The notes below the pieces were generated by a model. The model saw only the letters and a list, made by a program, of their open reading frames with translations. It was not told where the DNA came from and did no database searches. Below are positions 1,330 to 64,000 of a stretch of DNA of 64,000 nt, piece after piece. Each line of letters opens with the position of its first letter. Within the stretch, counting starts at the first letter, position 1. This stretch comes from an uncultured Candidatus Saccharibacteria bacterium (lineage in GTDB: Bacteria > Patescibacteriota > Minisyncoccia > Phycocordibacterales > UBA9973). Location of the stretch: positions 35,184 to 99,183 of the forward strand of contig CAYTSO010000003.1 of assembly GCA_964440545.1 (NCBI GenBank), written 5' to 3'. Made by a program: the position numbers and the translations under genes.

Positions 1330-3135
1330 ATGGAAATAAGAAACATTGCAATAATTGCACACGTAGATCACGGCAAAACAACTTTGACCGACGCCTTGAT
1401 GCGCCAATTTGGGACTTTGCCGGAGGAAAATTTTACCATGGACGTGAACGACCTAGAAAAAGAACGTGGTATAACTATTTATTCAAAAAATACGTCTATT
1501 GATTACAAAGGGACGAAGATAAATATAGTAGACACACCCGGTCATGCTGATTTTGGCTCAGAAGTGGAACGTGTTTTACGGGCAATCGACTCAGTTCTTT
1601 TGTTGGTGGACGCAGCTGAAGGACCAATGCCTCAAACCAGATTTGTTTTAAAAAAATCCCTTGAATTAGGACTCAAACCAATCGTAGTAATAAACAAAAT
1701 AGACAAACCAGCTGCTGATCCACATCAAACACATGAAAAAATTCTAGAATTATTTTTTGAACTAGGAGCAAACGAGGAACAGGCAAATTTCGAAACAGTT
1801 TACGCTAATGGCCGAGCAGGTATTGCTTATAAAAACCTAGGCGATAAATCTAATGATTTGTCCCCAATTGTGGATATGATTTTAGAAAAAGTTCCTCATG
1901 CTGCCGTTGACGAGAACGGCAAGATGTCAGCCCAAGTTTTTAATTTGGGTTATGATAATTTTTTGGGAAGAATGGCGATTGCTCGAATATATTCCGGAAA
2001 GATATTTTCCGGAAGTCAGGTCTTTGTGAAAGGGGAAAATAGCATCCGAAGAGGAAAAATTACGAAATTGTTTTCTTTTGAAGGAATAAATAGAAAGGAA
2101 GTTGAAAGTGCCTCCTCTGGTGATATCGTTCTTTTGGCTGGAATCCCAGATATTTATATTGGGGAGACAATTTGCGAAGATGAAAAAGTAGAAGCACTAC
2201 CTCACATCGCGATTGACGAACCAACCTTATCTCTCAATTTTTTAGTAAACGATTCTCCTTTTGCTGGACGAGAAGGAAAGTATGTTACCTCTAGGCAGAT
2301 AAAAGAAAGATTGGAAAAAGAATTAGAAATTAATGTTGGTCTAAAGATCGATTTTTCTCCGGAAGAAGGAAGAGACAAAATGGGTCCAAGTTTTTTTAAA
2401 GTATATGGACGAGGAGAATTACACGTTGCGGTTCTTCTTGAAAATATGCGTCGAGAAGGTTTCGAGATTCAGGTTTCTCAGCCGGAGGTTATTCTCAAGG
2501 AGAATGATGGCGAGCTTCTTGAACCTTACGAGGAATTGTTAATTGATGTACCGGTAGAATTTTCTGGCAGTGTAATTGAAAAAATTGGCAAAAGACGAGG
2601 TATTTTGAAAGATATGGTTGAAAAAGAAGGAATCGTAAGGATCGTTTTTAGCATACCGACCCGCGGACTCTTAGGCTACCGAGGAGAATTTATCATAGAC
2701 ACAAGGGGGGAAGGTATCATGTCTTCTCGGTTTACGGGTTTTAAAAAGCATGCGGGAGAAATTAGAAAAAGAGAATATGGATCTATGGTTTCTATTGCTG
2801 ACGGTAAGGCAGTTGCCTTTTCACTTGCCAATTTACAGGAACGTGGTATATTATATGTAGGCCATGGAGATTTGGTTTACGAGGGTATGGTTATTGGCAA
2901 TGTGCTAAAGGGAGAAGACATGTCCGTAAATCCCACCAAAGGAAAGCAACTTACCAACATGCGGGCTTCTGGGACTGACGAAGCCATTGTTTTAAATCCA
3001 GTCTTTGTTTTAAACATCGAAAGGGGCCTTGAAGTTATGAACGAAGATGATTATTTGGAAATTACCCCTAAATCTGTCAGGCTTCGCAAGAGACACTTAA
3101 CTGAATTAGATCGAGTTAGAGCAAAAAGAGAATAA
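1330..3135 (+). CDS. typA: translational GTPase TypA/BipA
   Basis: N-terminus [17 protein letters not shown] (G1), DTPGHADF (G3) and NKIDK (G4). The 601-aa length and EF-G-like domain order match BipA. Confidence 0.9.
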
Positions 3136-34316: not shown

Positions 34317-34410
34317 TGTGTTTGCATTTTGCATGTTTTTGTATAGTATAAAATTTGGTGGACAAAAATTGCCCTTTGACATATGTGCAAACCCCAGAAA
34401 GGAGTTGACC

Positions 34411-35832
34411 ATGCCAAATCTAATGCTTCCGGGGAACCCCCGGTACCAACCGAAGGAACTTCAAGCGTTCTTCGGCTACGACAGATTGTTTGAGGCTGTC
34501 GCTAGTGTCGAGATCGCGACCATGCAAACCTTGGCCGAGATCGGTATCATCCCTGCGGCGGACATCACCGTGCTTACTTCGGTGATCAAAGAAGAACTTT
34601 TTGCTATCTCGACGAGCGAAGTTGACGAGCTTGAGCGGAGAGTAACCAAGCACGACATCCGCGCTTGGGTGCGAATTGCCCAGGGCAAAATGGAGCCCGG
34701 GCTTCGTCGGTGGGTCCACGTGCCGCTGACGAGCTACGACGCACTCGACACTGCTCGTGCGGTGCAGTTCGTGCAAGCTCACAACAATGTGGTGAAGAGA
34801 TTCACAAACAAAGTGATCAGTCACTTTGTGGATCAGGTCTACCGTTTTGCTGACCAACCGCAGATTGGCCGAACACACGGCCAGCACGCCCTTCCTATCA
34901 CGGTCGGATTCTGGTTCGCAACAATTTTGAACCGGATTCTCTCCAACATCCAAGCGGCCAACGCTGCTGCGGAAAAACTGGTCGGGAAGATCTCAGGAGC
35001 CGTGGGCGTGTATAACGCTCAGGTTGGTCTTGGTATTTTGGCTCGTTGCGGAAGCAAAACCTTCGAGGAGCGTGTGCTCGAGAAGCTCGGCCTTAAGCCC
35101 GCGCCGATCAGCACGCAGATTCTCCCTCCGGAGCCACTCGCGGACTACTTGTTTGCTTGTGTTAAGCTCTCTGCTACGTTCGGTCAGTTCGGACTCGATG
35201 GACGGCATCTTATGCGTACCGAGATTGCCGAACTCGGGGAACCTTTCGAGTCGGGTCAGGTTGGTTCTTCGACCATGGCCCACAAACGAAACCCTATCAA
35301 CTTTGAAAACTTGGAGGGAACCTGGAAGAAGAACAAGGCTGAGTTCTACAAGGTGCTCGAGTGCATGACGAGCGAGCACCAGCGGGACTTGGTTGGTAGT
35401 TCAATCACTCGCGATTTCCCGACGATCGTCGTGAACGTCGTCAACCAGCTGAATACTCTGCTTCGAGAAGCGGGAGGCAAACCGTTTATCTCTCGCATCT
35501 CGGTCGACAAGGCTGCTTGTGAGCGGAACCTCAAAGCTCAGGGCGATGCTATTCTTGCAGAGCCGATTTACATTGCTCTTCAAATGGCTGGTTATGAAGG
35601 CGATGCTCATGAGCTCGTGAACCATGTGGCTTTGCCGTACGCGAAGAAACACAACATGTTGTTGCTTGCGGCGACGCGCCAAGTGCTTTCGGATTGCAAC
35701 AGCATCGTTTGGAAAAACATTCCGAGTGACACTGTTCAGATGCTTGAGGATTCCGAGCGCTACACCGGCAACGCGGCAGAAAAGGCGTACGAAATCGCCA
35801 AAGCCGCCGAAGCGTATCTCAAGACGAAGTAG
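34411..35832 (+). CDS. purB: adenylosuccinate lyase (class II fumarate-lyase family), high-GC
   Basis: GSSTMAHKRNPINFEN lyase signature with PurB-type NP(I/V)(D/N)FEN. AAAGGAG RBS 7 nt before the ATG at 34411. GC content is far above the flanks. The track ORF start at 34318 is an artefactual extension. Confidence 0.85.
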   Translation: MPNLMLPGNPRYQPKELQAFFGYDRLFEAVASVEIATMQTLAEIGIIPAADITVLTSVIKEELFAISTSEVDELERRVTKHDIRAWVRIAQGKMEPGLRRWVHVPLTSYDALDTARAVQFVQAHNNVVKRFTNKVISHFVDQVYRFADQPQIGRTHGQHALPITVGFWFATILNRILSNIQAANAAAEKLVGKISGAVGVYNAQVGLGILARCGSKTFEERVLEKLGLKPAPISTQILPPEPLADYLFACVKLSATFGQFGLDGRHLMRTEIAELGEPFESGQVGSSTMAHKRNPINFENLEGTWKKNKAEFYKVLECMTSEHQRDLVGSSITRDFPTIVVNVVNQLNTLLREAGGKPFISRISVDKAACERNLKAQGDAILAEPIYIALQMAGYEGDAHELVNHVALPYAKKHNMLLLAATRQVLSDCNSIVWKNIPSDTVQMLEDSERYTGNAAEKAYEIAKAAEAYLKTK

Positions 35833-56116: not shown

Positions 56117-57205
56117 CTATCTTATCATTGTTGCCAGTTCTGGCTCTTTGTTTACTAGCAGGACATTAAACCTCAAATGACCAATTGTTTTCCCTTCTAT
56201 TGTTTTTATATTTATTCGCCACTTCCCTGTTCCTAAATTTGAACGCATAGAATAGGTTCGGAAGCCACCATCCCGTCCACCAATAACCGGCAAATTAATT
56301 ACTTTATCAGTTATCCATTCTTCTTGATTTTCATTGTAATGTTGCCATTCGTGAACAATTGTTGTATCTAGGTTACTAGGAGAGAAAATTGCGCTAAAGG
56401 CATATGTGGGTGTTCCTGGGGCTTTATTAAAATCCGGATAAAGCCTGAAATAGTGCCACCAGCTCTTTTTCTCATAACTAGCAAGATAATTTCCGGTATT
56501 CGTTTTTTGTATAGAATAATAGACACCGGCATCTTTGAGAGAAAGCGGAATAGGTGGAAGGAGATTAGCAAAATATAATAAATTAACCAAAACAAAAATA
56601 CCTACAACTAAGGAGATAACTAATTTTTTACTTTCAGCAAAATTATCTTTTGTAAAGCGGAAGAGAATTATTATAAAAAGACTAATGAATATTAAACTAA
56701 TTAAGCCAGAAAGTAAAAATATTTTTGTGCCAATTTGGTGTAAAATTACCGGTATCAAAAAAATTGCAAAGGCGTAAATTGAAAGAAAGAATAAACTTAT
56801 TTGAAAACTTAATCGAACATAATGCCGTTTCATTGATTCATTGGCGATGAAGGCGAGCAAGAGGATAAAAACAAAAGGCCAGGTTACAAGGATGTCGGCA
56901 CTGCGGAAATAAAAAACCAGATAAGTAGAAAGAATTCCTCCAAAGAAGAACTGCAAAATATTTACATACCAAAAATGAGCTTTTTGCGGATTCTTTTCAT
57001 TTCCTGGTTCAGTGTCGTGCAGGTGGATGAGTAGAATAAAAATACCCACAACTAGTAAGTGTCCAAGAATCCAAATATTTTCCCAGAGGGTGTCCACCCT
57101 CTTTAGGGTGATGGCGTCAAAGACGAAACCAAATATTAGGGAAAATGATGAAATTGGCCGCTCAAAGCGACCATAAAAATTTCGAATTGGTTGTATTAAA
57201 AACAT
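56117..57205 (-). CDS. polytopic membrane protein with ~120-aa C-terminal extracytoplasmic domain, unknown function
   Basis: ATG at 57205 lies 7 nt downstream of a TATAAT hexamer. About eight TM helices. The track ORF extension to 57562 runs through a GC-rich element containing a terminator hairpin and is probably non-coding. Confidence 0.5.
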   Translation of the reverse strand: MFLIQPIRNFYGRFERPISSFSLIFGFVFDAITLKRVDTLWENIWILGHLLVVGIFILLIHLHDTEPGNEKNPQKAHFWYVNILQFFFGGILSTYLVFYFRSADILVTWPFVFILLLAFIANESMKRHYVRLSFQISLFFLSIYAFAIFLIPVILHQIGTKIFLLSGLISLIFISLFIIILFRFTKDNFAESKKLVISLVVGIFVLVNLLYFANLLPPIPLSLKDAGVYYSIQKTNTGNYLASYEKKSWWHYFRLYPDFNKAPGTPTYAFSAIFSPSNLDTTIVHEWQHYNENQEEWITDKVINLPVIGGRDGGFRTYSMRSNLGTGKWRINIKTIEGKTIGHLRFNVLLVNKEPELATMIR

Positions 57206-57249
57206 GGATTGATTATACACTACAAATTTAATAAATTTTTGTAAAATGA

Positions 57250-57600
57250 AAGGGGGCCCGAAGGCCCCCGTGGTGATGGTTTTGCGTGGCTGAGATTCCG
57301 GTGGCCACGCGGTTGATGAGACAGTTGCCCAGCTTACGACGGCCCCAGCGTCGTGCCGGGCGGGTTTGTGGCCCCTACTCGGAGGGGCACGACGGTTGCC
57401 GCTCTTGGCGAGCTTTTGGCCGGCCGTAGCGGCCTTGACGGCGTGGACCCCGGCAGCGGCCAAGGCGGCGAACTTTCCTCCCACCCGAGCTGTGTCCTCG
57501 GTGTAGGGGCAGAACGCGACCTCACAAGCGATTGCCGGAAGGTCCGGGACAAACATGAACAATTCTACCCTCCTTTCCTTTGAATTAAAAAATGTACGTT
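57250..57600 (-). other. unclassified GC-rich (about 60-65%) structured element, probably a minus-strand transcript from a promoter at 57610..57638 to a terminator at 57254..57271
   Basis: Sharp GC jump in a roughly 35% GC genome. Multiple hairpins (CCGGACCTTCCGG, ACGACG-N7-CGTCGT, CGTGGC-N13-GCCACG). Promoter and terminator flank it. Confidence 0.4.
57254..57271 (-). terminator. intrinsic terminator (minus strand)
   Basis: GGGGGCC-UUCG-GGCCCCC followed by UUUCAUUUU on the minus strand. Confidence 0.5.
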
Positions 57601-57609
57601 ACAGTTAAT

Positions 57610-57638
57610 AGTATATACTATATACAAAAACTTGTCAA
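57610..57638 (-). promoter_or_regulatory. near-consensus sigma-70 promoter on minus strand (TTGACA-17-TATACT)
   Basis: The minus strand reads TTGACAagtttttgtatatagtaTATACT. The -35 box is a perfect consensus. Confidence 0.45.
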
Positions 57639-57644
57639 GTGAGC

Positions 57645-57683
57645 AAAAAAATGCCGCCCCTGTTAAAATTGGGCGGCTTGATG
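57645..57683 (-). terminator. intrinsic terminator (minus strand) closing a second short GC-rich hairpin cluster (57684..57790)
   Basis: GCCGCCC-AATTTTAACAGG-GGCGGC followed by ATTTTTTTG on the minus strand. Confidence 0.4.
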
Positions 57684-58054
57684 ACTAACTGCGTCCTGGT
57701 AGACTAGTTTTGAAAAGCAGGACGACCGATGTCGTAGCAGAGGAATGAAGAAAGGGGGTTACGACGCCCACGCATGTGGGTTAAAACAGATGAGCAAACC
57801 AAATAAAATATACCACTTATTAATTTTTTTTGCAATATCCTGCTGCGATGCTTAGGCTAGTACCACTAGAGGTGAGCTGTCGTAAGGGTATTCTAGCATT
57901 TTTTCGTCTAGTGAAATGACGGCTTTGGGTCAATATATGAAATGTTGTTTTTCCTTGTTTTACTGTGAAATTTACTGTGATGACTTTGGTCTGGTACCGG
58001 ACAAAAAATTATCGCGCGCTATACTAAAAACATCACGATAGATGTGGTGATACT

Positions 58055-58462
58055 ATGTCTAATTTAAATACATTAAAACCTTTTCAATCAGGATTTGATT
58101 CGAGAAGAAATACAAAAGGAAGACCTAAAGGTGTTCGTAATATGAAAACAATTTTGTCTCAAAAATTGATGCAATATGTTGGTGAAGGTAAAAACAAAAC
58201 TCAACTTCAAGATGTTTTGATAAATAGGATTATTGATAAAGCTCTCAAAGGAGATAGGAAAATGATTCAGCTTATTTGGGAATATATGGATGGTAAGCCA
58301 CCAAAATGGAAAGGTGATCCTGTCCTTCAATCAAAAAGATATACGGAAAAGAAGACGGAAATTTCACCAGAAGATGAAGCTAAAATACAAGAATTATTTG
58401 GATCAAGACCAATCAACCCTACCCAAGAATCTCGACCCGATTCCAAGGTGTCTGTAACTTAA
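58055..58462 (+). CDS. hypothetical basic protein (mobile-element associated)
   Basis: 135 aa with N-terminal RRNTKGRPKGVRN. No further motif. Confidence 0.4.
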   Translation: MSNLNTLKPFQSGFDSRRNTKGRPKGVRNMKTILSQKLMQYVGEGKNKTQLQDVLINRIIDKALKGDRKMIQLIWEYMDGKPPKWKGDPVLQSKRYTEKKTEISPEDEAKIQELFGSRPINPTQESRPDSKVSVT

Positions 58463-58644
58463 CTTCCTTTTGAGAAAATGTGTAGAGGGAGTTATCCACT
58501 TAACACAAAGACCCTTTTAATAGGGTCTTTGTTGAGTAGGTGTGTATTTTGATCGCTATCGGGCGTGCAATTCTGGAAAACTGAATTCTGCTGATCGTAT
58601 CAAGTCCTCAAGCTCTATCGACTTTATCACTTTTCTCATTCAAC

Positions 58645-58830
58645 CTAATTTGTTTCATCTACAACAGTTGCGTCCTTAGCATTTAACTTTGTCCACTCGA
58701 TTGAATATTTTGCATCTGTTTTGTTGATGTAACTTTCACTACTCTTTGCAATAATCTTTCCGTTTTTATCAGATTTTAAAATCCAATAAAATTGACCAGA
58801 TATTGTCTTCTGAAGTTTAAATTTTGCCAT
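58645..58830 (-). CDS. YegP-like (DUF1508/UPF0339) small protein
   Basis: MAKFKLQKTISGQFYWILKSDKNGKIIAKSSESYINKTDAKYSIEW matches the YegP repeat pattern (G.F.F.LKA.NGE.IA.SE.Y). Confidence 0.55.
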   Translation of the reverse strand: MAKFKLQKTISGQFYWILKSDKNGKIIAKSSESYINKTDAKYSIEWTKLNAKDATVVDETN

Positions 58831-59026
58831 ACAAAAATAAAATTTAATTTACTAATAATATCGACCTGATAAAGAACGACCTTTCCTTATCATAACTCTT
58901 ATATAAATCGAGGTCAGGTAAATTTTTTCTAAAATTTGTTAATCAAATGTGGATAAGTTTGCCTAGACTTTCGGTTTTTATTCGGTTATAATACAAATGT
59001 AGCAAATTTAAGCATCTATAGCAAAT

Positions 59027-60604
59027 ATGACTAATATCACAAAAAAACAAAAACAAGTTTTTGACTTCATAAACAGCTATAGAGCTGAGAATGGCATTTC
59101 CCCTACCATAGAAGAAATACGAAAAAAACTTAAACTCAAAGCAGTATCTACTATCCACGAACATATTAAATCACTTCAAGACAAAGGGTATCTATCGAAG
59201 AGTGATAATTCTCCAAGAAGTATTGAGCCGACAAAGACAATTCGATCTGTTATTGATATTCCTGTTTTGGGAACTATTGCAGCTGGTCAACCAATCGAAG
59301 CAATAGAAAATTCTCAAGACACAATATCAATAATTAATCCTACGATTAAATCTTCTCAAGGTTATTACGCTTTAAGAGTTGCCGGAGATAGTATGATAGA
59401 AGAAGGTATATTTGATGGAGATATTGTTATCATTAAAAAACAATCAGTCGCGGAAAACGGACAAACTGTAGTTGCCATCATAGACGACAACGAAGCTACC
59501 CTTAAAAAGCTTTATCGCGAAAAATCTCGTTTTAGATTAGAACCAAGAAATCAAAACATGCTACCTTTTTTCAGAAAAGAAGTTGAGGTAAGAGGTGTTG
59601 TTGTTCAAGTAATTAGAAATATCAATAATCAAGAAATAGCAACTGTTTCAAAAAAAACTAAACATGGATTTAAAACCATTGACCTATTTGCAGGTGTAGG
59701 AGGTATCAGACTAGGCTTTGAAAAAGCTGGTTTTGAGACCGTCTTTGCAAATGATTTTGAAAAGCAATGTAAAGAAACATATGATTTAAACTTTCCAACT
59801 TCCAAACTAGTCATTGAAGATATAAGGCAAGTAGGAATTGAAGATTTACCTCAATTTGATTTTCTACTTGGGGGTTTTCCCTGCCAAGCATTTTCTATCG
59901 CAGGATACAGACAAGGTTTCAAAGATGAAAAAGGGCGTGGAAACTTATTTTTTGATATTGCCAGGATTATCGACGCAAGAAAGCCGGCTGGATTTCTATT
60001 AGAAAACGTAAAAAATCTAAAGAGCCACGATGGCGGTAAGACCTTCAAAATAATTGAACAAACATTAACAGATCTTGGATATCACATTAAAACCAAAGTA
60101 TTAAACAGTATGGAATATGGAAATATTCCCCAAAACAGAGAGCGTATCTACATAGTGGGCTTTAGAGATAAAAACTATACGGATAAATTTGAATTTCCTG
60201 ACCCAATAAAATTGAATGTTAAAATTACTGATTTACTCGAAAAGAATGTTCCAGAGAAATATTATTACAATGGTAAACCTCTTTTTGAAAAATTAAAAGA
60301 TTTTGTAAAAGAAGAAGGAAAAGTTTATCAGTGGCGAAGACAATATGTGAGAGAAAACAAGAAAGGTGTATGTCCTACCCTTACTGCAAACATGGGCATG
60401 GGCGGACACAACGTTCCTATCATAAAAGACAAAAAAGGTATAAGAAAGTTAACTCCTTTAGAGTGTTTTAGAATTCAGGGATTTCCTAAAAATTATACGT
60501 TACCTAAAATAGCCGACTCTGCTTTATATAAACAAGCTGGAAACTCTGTTAGTGTACCTGTTATTGAGGCGGTAGCAAAAAGGATGATGGTCGCTATGGA
60601 ATAA
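59027..60604 (+). CDS. fusion protein: full-length LexA-type repressor (HTH + S24 autopeptidase) fused to DNA (cytosine-5)-methyltransferase
   Basis: Residues 1 to about 205: LTKKQKQVFDFI..EEIRKKLKL.STIHEHIKSLQDKGYL (LexA wHTH), Ala-Gly cleavage site in IAAGQPIEA, VAGDSMIEEGI (catalytic Ser), TVVAIIDDNEATLKKL (catalytic Lys). Residues about 215-525: DLFAGVGG (motif I), GGFPCQAFS (IV), LLENVKNL (VI), QNRERIYIVG (VIII), QAGNSVSVPV (X). Single uninterrupted ORF. Confidence 0.8.
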   Translation: MTNITKKQKQVFDFINSYRAENGISPTIEEIRKKLKLKAVSTIHEHIKSLQDKGYLSKSDNSPRSIEPTKTIRSVIDIPVLGTIAAGQPIEAIENSQDTISIINPTIKSSQGYYALRVAGDSMIEEGIFDGDIVIIKKQSVAENGQTVVAIIDDNEATLKKLYREKSRFRLEPRNQNMLPFFRKEVEVRGVVVQVIRNINNQEIATVSKKTKHGFKTIDLFAGVGGIRLGFEKAGFETVFANDFEKQCKETYDLNFPTSKLVIEDIRQVGIEDLPQFDFLLGGFPCQAFSIAGYRQGFKDEKGRGNLFFDIARIIDARKPAGFLLENVKNLKSHDGGKTFKIIEQTLTDLGYHIKTKVLNSMEYGNIPQNRERIYIVGFRDKNYTDKFEFPDPIKLNVKITDLLEKNVPEKYYYNGKPLFEKLKDFVKEEGKVYQWRRQYVRENKKGVCPTLTANMGMGGHNVPIIKDKKGIRKLTPLECFRIQGFPKNYTLPKIADSALYKQAGNSVSVPVIEAVAKRMMVAME

Positions 60605-60605
60605 G

Positions 60606-61649
60606 TTATTTGTTGTAAACTTTATCAAAAGCCTTAATCATTTTGTCTGTAGAATCTTTTGCAAATACTTCAAAAGAATTTTTCACCGCCAAGTTCTCAT
60701 CCCAGTTTGAACTTCTATCAAATTGAGCTAACTCAATTTTAATAAAACCTGGCAACATTTTCTGATTATTAATTGATAGTGTTTTATCTGTCTTCAAGAA
60801 TACTGACCCTTTATTTTCTTTTACAATAAAGGTGCTTTTTGTATCGCCCTCTATAGAAATTGGTAAATAAATATCACTGCCATTTTCATATATAAATTTA
60901 CTATTTAAAAATTTTATCTTTTTTGGATCTTGTGGCTTAGTAACTTTATCTACATTAGAAACACTCTTCACATATCTTGGGCTAACTTTCGGTTTACAAG
61001 AAACTGTATTCTCTAAAATTTGATCTTTTGTATAAGTACCAATTAATCTGAAGCTACCCACAATCTCAGCCTTCTCAGGTTTAACTGGAGAAATAATACT
61101 AGAATTTTTATCTGATTTTATAAATATAGGATCCGCTTTAAGTAACTCAGCATTTTTTTCATTAAAAACTTCATCTTCAAATATCATAGTTAAATAATCA
61201 GGAGAAAGGTCCGATTCTACAAAAACATAATAATCATCAATCATTTGAGGTTGTCTAATGCCTAAAAGATATTGATCTTTACGTAAAGCTTTTACTTCAA
61301 CTCTTGGACTATTACCGACCGTTTCCCATCGTCCATCATTATACTGAACAAAAGGAATAGTCTTTTTGTTATCTTTGATACCTATAATATCTGGTGCATT
61401 CTTTTCAGACTCATTGTTATATAGAAAATAGTCTGGCACCGCTTTATATGGTTTGTCTTGTAAAAGACTATCAAAAACCGCTGTCTCAGCTAATTTATTT
61501 AACCATCTTTCAATAAAACCACCGACAAGATCTCTCTTTGAAGATGTTCCTTGCATGTGTAAAGAATCAGAACTATATTTCATTAATATAAAATATATAG
61601 TTCTTATTAACTCCTCTTTTGTTATTTCGATTTTTGGATATTTACTCAC
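60606..61649 (-). CDS. candidate type II restriction endonuclease (PD-(D/E)xK) partner of the methyltransferase
   Basis: Convergent, 1-nt gap to the MTase gene. Possible ..APDIIGIK..(27)..RVEVKALRK PD...E.K motif. No other homology recognised. Confidence 0.35.
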   Translation of the reverse strand: MSKYPKIEITKEELIRTIYFILMKYSSDSLHMQGTSSKRDLVGGFIERWLNKLAETAVFDSLLQDKPYKAVPDYFLYNNESEKNAPDIIGIKDNKKTIPFVQYNDGRWETVGNSPRVEVKALRKDQYLLGIRQPQMIDDYYVFVESDLSPDYLTMIFEDEVFNEKNAELLKADPIFIKSDKNSSIISPVKPEKAEIVGSFRLIGTYTKDQILENTVSCKPKVSPRYVKSVSNVDKVTKPQDPKKIKFLNSKFIYENGSDIYLPISIEGDTKSTFIVKENKGSVFLKTDKTLSINNQKMLPGFIKIELAQFDRSSNWDENLAVKNSFEVFAKDSTDKMIKAFDKVYNK

Positions 61650-61749
61650 AATATCTCAAGAATATCTGAAAATTGACTAAAAATCAATTTTACTGCATGG
61701 AATATAGACTCATCTGGACTTCGTCCCTCCATCCGGTATGTTCGTGTAT

Positions 61750-63066
61750 ATGGAGAATATAGCCATACAGAATCAATATTTTCACACCAACATCACGGAA
61801 CAGGAACCTCTCAGATATTGTTTATATGCTCGAAAATCAAGTGAGGCAGAAGAAAAACAAGCTCTTTCTATAGATTCACAAATCAAAGAAATGCTCTTGA
61901 TTGCTCAAAGAGAAAATCTGAATATTGTTGATATGTATCGAGAATCACATTCAGCAAAAGATTGTGGGCAAAGACCTGTATTCAATCAATTGTTGACTGA
62001 TATTCGCGAAGGTAAATTTAATGGAATATTAGTGTGGCATCCTGACAGACTTTCAAGAAATGCTGGGGACTTGGGAGCCGTTGTAGATTTACTCGATCAA
62101 AAGAAACTTATAGAGATCCGAACATACAGTCAAAAATTTACTAACAATCCGAATGAAAAGTTTCTTCTGATGATTCTTGGTTCGCAAGCAAAACTTGAAA
62201 ATGATAACAAGAGTATTAATGTGAAGCGTGGGCTAAAAACAAAATGCGAGATGGGGCTATGGCCAAGTGTTGCACCAACCGGATATTTAAATTCAAAAAA
62301 TAAAGATCAAAAAGGAACTGTATTCATTGACCCTGTACGAGCACCAATTATTAAACAAATGTTTGAGAAGGTATCTAATGAGGGTTGGAGTGGTAGAAAA
62401 TTATTTAGATGGTTAAAAGATATACGATTTGTAACAAGAACAGGAAAATATCTAACACTGAGTAATGTATATGTAATATTGAATAATCATTTTTATTATG
62501 GATCTTTTGAATATCCAAAGAATAGTGGTCGATGGTTTCAAGGTAAACACGTGCCAATAATTTCAAAAGATTTATTTGATGCAGTACAAAAGCATTTAAA
62601 ACTACAGATCAAAGTCCATTCCAAAAATAAGGAATTTGCTTTCACTAAACTTCTCTCTTGTGGAGTATGTGGCTCTGGTGTTACCGCTCAAGAAAAATAC
62701 AAAAACCTCAAAGATGGATCAATAAACAAATATATTTATTACGGTTGTACAAGAGCAAAAGATATTAATTGCAAAGAAGGATATATTGAAGAAAAAGTTT
62801 TGATTGCACAATTACTTGTAATTATTGATCGAATTGACTTAGACAGGTCAGGTATAAAGAAAAAACTAGAAGCAGAAATTGAGCGTCACAAAAAATTCCA
62901 CTCGGGTATTATGGGAAAATCTGAGGAGGAATATCATGCAAAAGATGCAGATATCAGGAACTACGCAAAATACTTATTGAATGAAGGATCGATGTTTGAG
63001 AAGAGAGATTTGTTGACGTGCTTGAAAAGTAAGATAAGTTTGAAGGATAAAAAAATTATTTTGTAA
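61750..63066 (+). CDS. large serine recombinase (resolvase/invertase catalytic domain + recombinase domain + zinc ribbon)
   Basis: YARKSSEAEEKQALSIDSQ (catalytic Ser in Y-x-R-x-S-S), a large recombinase domain, and CGVCGS...YYGCTRAK zinc ribbon. The track ORF starts 61738. ATG at 61750 is equally plausible. Confidence 0.8.
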   Translation: MENIAIQNQYFHTNITEQEPLRYCLYARKSSEAEEKQALSIDSQIKEMLLIAQRENLNIVDMYRESHSAKDCGQRPVFNQLLTDIREGKFNGILVWHPDRLSRNAGDLGAVVDLLDQKKLIEIRTYSQKFTNNPNEKFLLMILGSQAKLENDNKSINVKRGLKTKCEMGLWPSVAPTGYLNSKNKDQKGTVFIDPVRAPIIKQMFEKVSNEGWSGRKLFRWLKDIRFVTRTGKYLTLSNVYVILNNHFYYGSFEYPKNSGRWFQGKHVPIISKDLFDAVQKHLKLQIKVHSKNKEFAFTKLLSCGVCGSGVTAQEKYKNLKDGSINKYIYYGCTRAKDINCKEGYIEEKVLIAQLLVIIDRIDLDRSGIKKKLEAEIERHKKFHSGIMGKSEEEYHAKDADIRNYAKYLLNEGSMFEKRDLLTCLKSKISLKDKKIIL

Positions 63067-63967
63067 CCGCAACCTGTTGAATAACAGCTGATCCTTTATG
63101 GTTTTCAACTATTTTTGAAGCAAATGTACTACCGAGAGTATGCATCATTGCGTGATGAACAGATAAAACATTTTCTTGAAGAACTTGGTCTTCTTCCAAT
63201 TTTTCAACGATTAATCCTATTTCAACACATTTTGAATAAGATAGGTGTCTTCCATGAGAAAGACTTACAGAATGGTCCCCGAGTTCTTTAATAATTTTAT
63301 CAATCGTTGCTTTCTTTTCATGAGCATTTGTAACATTAGAAAACATTCTTATTCCGAGCTTTTCTCTAGCAATATCTTCTGCCCACTTTAATGCTTGCTG
63401 ACACTCTCCAACAAGTGTAGGTGTATATTTTGCAATTATAGGTTGCCAAACAAAAACCTTACTCTGATCAGCCTTGATTTCTTCATGAGCTTTTTTAAAT
63501 TCTTCTAAAACTCCATGGGCTGCAACCATACCATAAGGCGTATTAAACTGTGGATCAATAGGACCAAGGCTAGAATGTTTCCCCATTAAAATTTTATTTG
63601 ATGAACAAGCAATCATTGTTCCACCAGACATTGCTAATTGAGGAACAATTACGCGAATATCTTCAAACATAGTCATTAAATAATCAATTATTGATTCTGT
63701 TGCAGCAATATCACCACCAGGAGTATGAAGAATGAGATCAAGTCCCTTGGTTCGATCTAAACCTTTAATGGTTGCCATGAAAGCATTCTTATCTAAGTCG
63801 TTTATACCCAAATTGGGAGCACCATTCTTTTGCAACCAACCACTATAGTAAGCAATCACATTTCTTTTGGTATAATTTTGAAGACGTTTCAAATACCTCC
63901 TTCGAATACCATCGAAGTCACCTCTGCTTTTTTGTAATTCATTTAATATGCCTGTCCAGTCTGCCAT
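63056..63967 (-). CDS. ClpP/crotonase-fold serine protease, S49/SDH-like family
   Basis: LILHTPGGDIAATESIIDYL and PQLAMSGGTMIACSSNKILMGKHSSLGPIDPQ resemble the serine dehydrogenase proteinase / SppA-like active-site region. Confidence 0.55.
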   Translation of the reverse strand: MADWTGILNELQKSRGDFDGIRRRYLKRLQNYTKRNVIAYYSGWLQKNGAPNLGINDLDKNAFMATIKGLDRTKGLDLILHTPGGDIAATESIIDYLMTMFEDIRVIVPQLAMSGGTMIACSSNKILMGKHSSLGPIDPQFNTPYGMVAAHGVLEEFKKAHEEIKADQSKVFVWQPIIAKYTPTLVGECQQALKWAEDIAREKLGIRMFSNVTNAHEKKATIDKIIKELGDHSVSLSHGRHLSYSKCVEIGLIVEKLEEDQVLQENVLSVHHAMMHTLGSTFASKIVENHKGSAVIQQVAVTK

Positions 63968-64000
63968 GTTGATACTTGAATAAGTTTATTATTTTCTTTA

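Follow-up and report, generated by a model that had tools for sequence, protein, structure and literature searches.

Background

What is the island of GC-rich DNA that stands directly upstream of a membrane-protein gene in a genome of 37% GC? The question concerns a stretch of 64,000 nucleotides (nt) from an uncultured Candidatus Saccharibacteria bacterium (the window, i.e., the whole stretch that was analysed, at its full length). Judged by the names that its relatives carry, the organism is a Nomurabacteria/Paceibacterota-like member of the candidate phyla radiation (CPR). On its minus strand a putative short transcription unit (57243..57603) precedes a gene for a polytopic membrane protein of the DUF2914 family (362 amino acids (aa); 56117..57205, minus strand). 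A sequence-only reading had left several choices: a riboswitch or attenuator of the membrane-protein gene, an independent small RNA such as a divergent RNase P RNA, transfer-messenger RNA (tmRNA) or 6S RNA, an N-terminal extension of the membrane protein, or the remnant of an insertion.

The answer that we favour, and to which we would give about an even chance, is that the element is an autonomous RNA, translated and structured, with a 33-nt hairpin (57328..57360, minus strand) as its functional core; the DUF2914 gene would be its neighbour and not its target. This reading builds on the observed anatomy of the unit, its homology, the covariation of the hairpin, the conservation of its frame and the loss of protein features, from which transcription, translation and binding by the hairpin are inferred.

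Anatomy of the GC-rich unit

The GC content reaches 72.7% over 150 nt within 57210-57607 (up to 69.5% in a 200-nt profile), the highest value in the 64 kb, and is 61% over the whole element, against a window mean of 37.0%; the GC-rich character noticed at first is thus real. The unit is bounded by its own promoter and intrinsic terminator, and the positions of both are conserved in two loci of related genomes (L003 and L100, described below), as in an independent small RNA gene. The proposal of an independent small structured transcription unit on the minus strand is the part of the sequence-only reading that stood.

The sigma-70-type promoter TTGACA-17-TATACT (57610..57638, minus strand) was also read correctly: it agrees with the consensus at 11 of 12 positions and is the top-scoring of 11 promoter-like sites between 56 and 59 kb. 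Since shuffled sequences yield 8.7 +/- 3.2 sites, so that the count shows no excess, the consensus match alone proves nothing. Both its CTTGACAA region and its -10 region can be aligned with the promoter sequences that precede the homologous units of L003 and L100. Transcription is predicted to start near 57603.

The ribosome-binding region (57554..57574, minus strand) consists of the Shine-Dalgarno (SD) sequence AGGAGGG (57574..57568), a TTG codon 5 nt further on (57562..57560) and an ATG codon at 11 nt (57556..57554); the SD sequence had been recognised, with a spacing of 7 nt to the ATG that has to be corrected to 11. The SD region GAAAGGAG aligns in the window, L003 and L100. An open reading frame (ORF) of 481 aa (56117..57562) runs from the TTG, in frame through the terminator, into the membrane-protein gene, in agreement with what had been said of the open frame; the public record has 479 aa.

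The terminator GGGGGCC-UUCG-GGCCCCC (57243..57269, minus strand) has 7 G-C pairs and a UUCG loop and is followed by UUUCAUUUU. It is as real as was claimed, with coordinates shifted by 2 nt: the stem occupies 57269..57252 and the tail TTTCATTTT 57251..57243. Just 5' of it lies a short block, CAAAACCATCACC (57272..57284, minus strand), which aligns at the nucleotide level with AAAAGCATCACA in L100 and TAAACGCATCACC in L003, in the latter in a different reading frame.

The predicted transcript of about 360 nt (57243..57603, minus strand) would thus carry an open frame with no stop before the terminator. The description of it as full of hairpins is supported by folding against shuffled sequences, with z = -2.18 for the minus strand, -0.13 for the plus strand and -3.26 for the 3' 125 nt alone.

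Relatives of the unit

Sequence searches with the element gave nothing beyond the window's own record, and its relatives were found through the synteny of the small-RNA-like unit next upstream, here called 'up' (57641..57835, minus strand). In the latter a CU-rich 5' part, a conserved covarying hairpin and a conserved single-stranded CAGUYAGUCAUCWAGCC stretch lie between a promoter of the TG-extended type (57835..57807) and a terminator (57677..57645). The CU-rich part, with CCUCC runs, resembles the anti-SD sequence of 16S rRNA (e.g., CACCUCCUUU occurs twice in L100). Homologous stretches are present in L003, L006 and L100 (nhmmer, 1.4e-4 and 2.4e-14; covariance model (CM) R2, 82-98 bits, with 82 bits in the window). 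No Rfam match to 'up' was obtained, and in about 100 loci searched with nhmmer and the CM there were no copies of 'up' or the unit beyond the window, L003/L017 (the same contig, JBAYHY010000010), L006 and L100. The collections searched held no genome above 90% average nucleotide identity (ANI) to this one.

In L003 and L100, two related Nomurabacteria-like genomes, a GC-rich unit (peak 72-73%) stands behind 'up' as it does in the window. These units share with that of the window the CTTGACAA promoter, the GAAAGGAG SD region, the hairpin, the block before the terminator and the UUCG terminator. Their transcripts are predicted to be strongly structured (z = -4.64 and -3.56).

Other GC spikes in the collected loci were rejected as homologues. 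In L060 and L075 they read, upon manual translation, as ordinary GC-rich genes for small secreted or membrane proteins; the spike of L052 reads as the last part of an ordinary protein gene, with two tRNA-like sequences behind it.

In this variable region the relatives also have more GC-rich units of small size, each with a promoter and a UUCG terminator of its own (L003 1430-1790, minus strand; L001 3470-3690; L002 5700-5940). One of them, convergent with the L003 unit, contains an ORF of 42 aa (MEKRNEVKARGAPAVITKLNIAAKWSSIAKKSMPLSAKEVTF); L001 and L002 share a GC-rich unit that is apparently non-coding.

The conserved hairpin

The only internal piece common to the window and L003 is the 33-nt RNA hairpin CCCGGCACGACG-CUGGGGC-CGUCGU-AA-GCUGGG (57328..57360, minus strand), which was studied by pattern scan, CM, covariation and folding. 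Its stem of 6+6 base pairs contains an AA bulge, and its loop, N-U-G-G-G-G-N, has 7 nt. One exact pattern with 22 fixed bases was used to scan the metagenome and genome collection, and it returned four more contigs of Joint Genome Institute (JGI) metagenomes (L095, L096, L098 and L099); the positions that the pattern left free are complementary in all four. A covariance model built from five sequences (R1), to which the window scores 57.7 bits, then gave divergent copies in L100 at the syntenic place and in L103/L104 and L106 between gatC and gatA; on L105, a short contig, another copy lies upstream of gatA.

The statistics refer to eight distinct sequences. Pairing is kept in 93.8% of cells, and 5 of the 12 pairs have changed on both sides; none of 500 shuffles reached the observed covariation, and registers slid along the alignment show none. 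The predicted fold of all eight sequences is this hairpin, with energies of -15 to -18 kcal/mol, and neither the loop U-G-G-G-G nor the AA bulge varies. At one pair four sequences have G-U and the other four G-C; since the G-U pairs fit only the strand that bears the promoter and terminator, they fix the transcribed strand. The covariation analysis proposed with the sequence-only reading thus gave a positive answer for the hairpin only, the rest of the transcript being too divergent.

At all eight loci an SD-led start stands in the reading frame of the hairpin, upstream of it by 8-10 codons in the Falkowbacteria-type contigs (described below) and 66-118 codons in the Nomurabacteria-like ones. 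In this frame the hairpin always reads W/R-H-x-x-G-x-x-x-S. The peptide upstream of it is not conserved, and in three sequences the ORF ends with a UAG within the 3' strand of the stem.

Translation of the hairpin seems to matter. In its nine codons the eight sequences show a single synonymous difference, in L103 (His, CAC to CAU), accompanied by a change of the base with which it pairs. The variable residues, D/V, E/L, G/A and G/T, are non-conservative and change in step with the base pairing, which argues for a constraint on the nucleotides. The window has a compensatory change of its own, U-A to C-G, that comes together with the replacement of tryptophan by arginine (W to R); in this lineage it is therefore the pairing that was preserved, not the peptide. 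Judged by covariation and folding, the hairpin is a selected RNA structure. It is likewise, as far as these comparisons reach, a new motif, absent from Rfam and common to two distant lineages of Patescibacteria.

Orphan units between gatC and gatA

For the contigs bearing gatA, the GatA proteins matched carry the names Candidatus Falkowbacteria or Patescibacteria group. On these Falkowbacteria-type contigs the same hairpin lies in an orphan transcription unit of 0.6-1.6 kb, antisense between gatC and gatA (L096 1795-2515; L103 2285-2850, minus strand; L098 8845-10105, minus strand; L106 ~1390-2850, minus strand; also L095). The units have a strong promoter and terminator and are very strongly structured, that of L103 folding with z = -7.57. 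Their conserved, SD-led mini-ORFs encode MNRYPVGFR* (L096 and L103), MRNSFPTGFV* (L106) and MRTAFPVGEV* (L098). A scan of L095, L096, L098 and L099 with Rfam found only tRNA. We regard the orphan units as a candidate new large structured RNA.

It is tempting to propose that the hairpin marks a new widespread RNA class of CPR bacteria (Patescibacteria), with the window as its minimal member, the 0.6-1.6 kb Falkowbacteria units as the full-size form and the hairpin as a ribosome-gated binding site, for example a mimic of an anticodon arm that might titrate a tRNA-binding enzyme; we hold this extension to be speculative and rather doubtful. To our knowledge, almost no regulatory RNAs have been characterised in CPR bacteria. 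If the proposal is true, it would amount to a novel principle of regulation, in organisms with an RNA biology that has hardly been explored. The conserved module coupled to translation is a concrete starting point for experimental work and for an Infernal search of whole collections.

Proposed role and points against it

We presume the following mechanism. The near-consensus promoter would give a transcript of about 360 nt starting near 57603; the strong SD sequence with its TTG or ATG start would load ribosomes onto the GC-rich structured body, and the intrinsic terminator would end the RNA near 57245. The unit would be the orthologue of the GC-rich units behind 'up' in the two Nomurabacteria-like genomes. 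In the window selection appears to have kept the transcription unit and the hairpin (57328-57360), the protein role having been lost. Most likely the hairpin would serve as a recognition site for a trans-acting factor, and ribosomes passing through it would control its availability. The DUF2914 gene would not be regulated by the unit, having a leaderless mRNA from its own promoter.

Several points weigh against this interpretation. The promoter, terminator and SD sequence are consensus matches only, with transcription and translation inferred from them, and the fold of the whole unit (the z of -2.18 given above) is only modest. The entire unit occurs in only three loci and is almost unalignable outside the hairpin; nhmmer gives no link between the units of the window and L003. 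The search that turned up the copies in L100, L103 and L106 used a model that takes structure into account, so that the pair counts are biased toward structure, and the kinship of the sequences inflates the shuffle statistics. Duplexes between 'up' and the 5' end of the unit (RNAduplex), of the sort that a type I toxin-antitoxin pair would form at the translation-initiation region, have z from -1.6 to +2.0 in cognate and non-cognate pairs alike. Any binding partner of the hairpin is a candidate only. Finally, high GC content and a broken ORF are also compatible with a fairly recent pseudogene.

Searches for known families

The proposal of a divergent RNase P RNA, tmRNA or 6S RNA found no support. 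Rfam 15 gave nothing at gathering thresholds in the whole 64-kb window, and in 57000-58100 nothing fell on the element even at E<=10; the Rfam scan suggested at first has thus been negative. ARAGORN found no tmRNA and no tRNA gene in the whole window. RNase P RNA, tmRNA, 6S RNA and signal recognition particle (SRP) RNA were rejected on these grounds. A GGGAGGAAAGUUCG stretch resembles conserved region I (CR-I) of RNase P RNA, but no partner strand for P4 is seen by eye and there is no CM match. The first pseudoknot (PK1) of tmRNA was likewise considered and rejected: the covariation of the hairpin is that of an extended stem and does not fit a pseudoknot, and the 3' strand in the window cannot pair with the loop.

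Among other structural classes, a selenocysteine or pyrrolysine insertion element (SECIS/PYLIS) was rejected since no UGA or UAG precedes the hairpin, a kink-turn since the hairpin has no tandem G-A pairs, and a repeat of the repetitive extragenic palindromic (REP) type since there is a single copy per locus. The element is not a target of a diversity-generating retroelement either: no part of it has a second copy (template repeat) in the 64 kb. No reverse transcriptase came up in domain searches that covered the ORFs around the element and only a few of the others in the window.

At the level of proteins, Pfam and PHROGs contain no family matching the proteins of the unit. Translated scans of the element against genome, viral and metagenome contigs found no relatives, and a search of 5.8 billion proteins with the six frames concatenated brought back nothing but the record of the window itself. 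A single match, P0128 (E = 1.1e-5), came from an exhaustive HMMER search of 1.84 billion representatives. We reject it: the score is summed over four near-identical repeats, each of which has about 30 bits, insignificant at the scale of this library. Neither the L003 protein nor the L100 protein matches P0128.

Alternative explanations

The main rival is a decaying pseudogene of a small secreted-protein gene of the L003/L100 type, maybe transcribed and without function, in which the hairpin is retained merely by the short time elapsed. The units of L003 and L100 encode an ORF of 126 or 156 aa with the conserved signal peptide MKK-LxFFVTLxALVxAxMALA-MPPP. The two ORFs share one frame throughout, all indels being multiples of 3; among the 68 codons that differ, 52 differences are non-synonymous and 16 synonymous; the predicted protein is fast-evolving. 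The ORF of L003 has no homologue in 5.8 billion proteins, a result explained by gene callers having taken another frame.

The window copy has departed from this pattern. Its ORF starts with MFMFVPDLPAIACEVAF; D, E and P occur where the hydrophobic core should be, and the MKK codons are deleted in the alignment; about 70 nt (57431-57361) are out of frame relative to L003, in a part where the alignment is uncertain; no stop codon occurs before the terminator, nor any until the end of DUF2914. In tblastn the L003 and L100 proteins find nothing in the element better than E = 0.02 in a 461-nt database. As read from these alignments, the small secreted protein of the L003/L100 type is lost in the window genome.

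A pseudogene would explain the loss of the signal peptide, of the frame and of the stop, as well as the absence of protein relatives for all six frames and the lone, insignificant match to a four-repeat protein. What it explains poorly is the selective survival of the rest. In its remaining parts the unit no longer has any recognisable similarity to L003 and L100, so a long time must have elapsed; despite this divergence, the promoter (11 of 12 positions), the SD sequence, the terminator and the 12-bp hairpin are intact. The hairpin also has its lineage-specific compensatory double change, the GC content is still 61-73% in a 37% GC genome, and the conserved frame, which leads from the SD-led start through the hairpin, has stayed open. 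We therefore consider a functionless pseudogene unlikely, though deserving serious attention.

A second possibility is that the unit still codes, either for a small cytoplasmic protein made from a non-stop mRNA (in the style of ArfA/BrfA, with trans-translation) or, by read-through of the terminator, for an extension of 119 aa to the DUF2914 protein. The strong SD sequence, the start 5 nt further on and 119 codons open through the terminator into DUF2914 speak for it, as does the ORF of L100, which also passes through its terminator and meets a stop only after the U-tract (that of L003 stops before the terminator). The terminated transcripts of the window and L100 would accordingly be non-stop mRNAs. 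A terminator inside the ORF is known to control brfA (PMC6881298), and the fusion is annotated in the public record (P0001).

On the other side, the GC content by codon position, 0.65/0.62/0.71, is nearly equal and has no periodicity, unlike that of a typical high-GC coding sequence. Neither a Pfam or PHROGs family nor a credible homologue exists for the product in the searches above, and its C-terminus, ...ESQPRKTITTGAFGPPF, is not basic, unlike those of ArfA and BrfA. An open frame is not rare in DNA of about 68% GC (~0.1 for 100 codons, an estimate from base composition). As for the extension, 119 of the 120 best DUF2914 homologues have 361-367 aa, the sole exception being the window's own public record of 479 aa (P0001), and the gene has a promoter of its own at the ATG. 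The N-terminal extension is therefore an artefact of annotation, and this part of the sequence-only reading is to be dropped; the public entry is corrected to a 362-aa protein plus an unrelated upstream unit. Taken as a whole, a still-coding unit seems to us improbable.

Horizontal transfer was considered as well, with the unit as cargo or as an end remnant of the integrated mobile element that adjoins it (58055 to beyond 64000). The GC content foreign to the genome, the phage-like and mobile-element-like genes next door and the possession of a promoter and terminator, as in a moron, are in keeping with this. However, L003 and L100 carry 'up' and the GC-rich unit in synteny on the chromosome without these mobile genes there, which makes the unit chromosomal. 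The viral contigs contain no copy of it, and blastn against phages and plasmids returned chance fragments only. The suggestion of an insertion remnant is thus not upheld, and we judge it very improbable.

The leader hypothesis, in which a riboswitch or attenuator would control DUF2914 in cis through the terminator, owes its appeal to the layout: promoter, long structured RNA, terminator, gene. It was addressed in 62 loci, i.e., the window and 61 orthologous DUF2914 loci, by reading of the sequences. A -10-like box (TAnnnT, often TGTTATAAT) stands 4-9 nt, mostly exactly 6 nt, before the start in 50 of the 62, the window included; not one has an SD sequence ahead of the DUF2914 start. In the window the box is TATAAT (57212..57217, minus strand), outside the GC-rich unit and 6 nt before the ATG (57205); its presence had been noted correctly, its spacing as 7 nt incorrectly. 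This indicates that the DUF2914 mRNAs of this orthologue group would be leaderless, made from a promoter abutting the start codon, which leaves no room for a 5' leader.

The comparison of upstream regions of orthologues, also proposed earlier, points the same way: among the ~60-85 orthologous loci examined, from about 90 fetched with DUF2914 orthologues, there is no GC island directly upstream of DUF2914. Three or four genes stand between the homologous unit and DUF2914 in L003 and L100. They include a two-component system and a DUF5666-like gene, with an M15 peptidase gene in L100; in L003 a convergent small unit intervenes as well. The two-component system and the DUF5666 gene are absent in the window, so that its unit abuts DUF2914; the adjacency looks like a lineage-specific difference in gene content. 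With the gene's own -10 box, no adjacent element in any orthologue examined and no Rfam aptamer class, a cis-acting leader has hardly any probability left, and with leaderless DUF2914 genes regulation through a 5' leader would be ruled out across the orthologue group.

Other features of the window

Beside the 'up' side of the unit, positions 58055-64000 form a phage-like or integrative-element-like block. Its genes are those for a DUF5681 protein, a DUF1508 protein, an unknown protein of 347 aa, a LexA-Dcm fusion, a large serine recombinase (61738-63066) and an SDH/ClpP-like protease of the uncharacterised phage family phrog_11747. The fusion, an ORF of 525 aa (59027-60604, plus strand), joins a LexA DNA-binding domain, an S24 peptidase domain and a complete C-5 cytosine DNA methyltransferase; judged by these predicted domains, a self-cleaving repressor is joined to a methylase, which is an uncommon combination. 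The spacer that separates 'up' from the DUF5681 gene contains two copies, 12 nt apart, of a perfect 10-nt direct repeat, TTTACTGTGA (57959-57980); it could be an operator or a site related to phage attachment (att).

The only other large GC anomaly of the window is a Lyase_1/adenylosuccinate-lyase-like gene (34318-35832, plus strand; 55-63% GC), possibly acquired horizontally. Near DUF2914 many loci of relatives have a tRNA-Gln(ttg) gene (35 ARAGORN calls over all fetched loci) that is absent from the window.

Comparison with known systems

In brfA and arfA a terminator inside the ORF gives rise to a non-stop mRNA (PMC6881298). The window and L100 share with them an intrinsic terminator inside the ORF and, presumably, terminated RNAs without a stop. 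They differ in having no sequence similarity to ArfA or BrfA (no Pfam matches, no homologues) and no basic C-terminal tail; in L003 the stop codon precedes the terminator, and the proteins of the relatives carry signal peptides.

GC-rich intergenic regions of AT-rich genomes are the signal used by the structured-RNA discovery pipelines of the Breaker laboratory (PMC11109978, PMC8632094). Like such RNAs, the unit of the window has a GC spike, a fold energy below that of shuffles and a covarying hairpin; it differs in that it has no Rfam class, that only a 33-nt module is conserved while the remaining transcript evolves freely, and that the unit of its relatives is protein-coding.

The thrS operator mimics an anticodon arm, and the operators of MS2 and PP7 are bound by coat protein. 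Our hairpin resembles these in being stable, with an invariant loop and bulged adenines, in or near a translated region; its loop has, by format alone, the format of the anticodon loop of tRNA-Pro(GGG), and none of the fetched loci contains a tRNA-Pro for comparison. It differs in that no cognate protein gene is linked to it and in lying off the start codon.

SgrS/SgrT, RNAIII/hld and SR1/SR1P are bacterial small RNAs that are both coding and regulatory. No relation in sequence or structure to such dual-function RNAs is found (Rfam is negative), and in the present case the conserved structure lies inside the translated frame. The likeness is in the organisation: the transcript is short and autonomous, runs from a promoter of its own to an intrinsic terminator, and combines an SD-led ORF with a conserved RNA structure in which the constraint is on the nucleotides and not on the peptide. 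Though it is in no described family, the unit is like a bacterial small or dual-function RNA gene.

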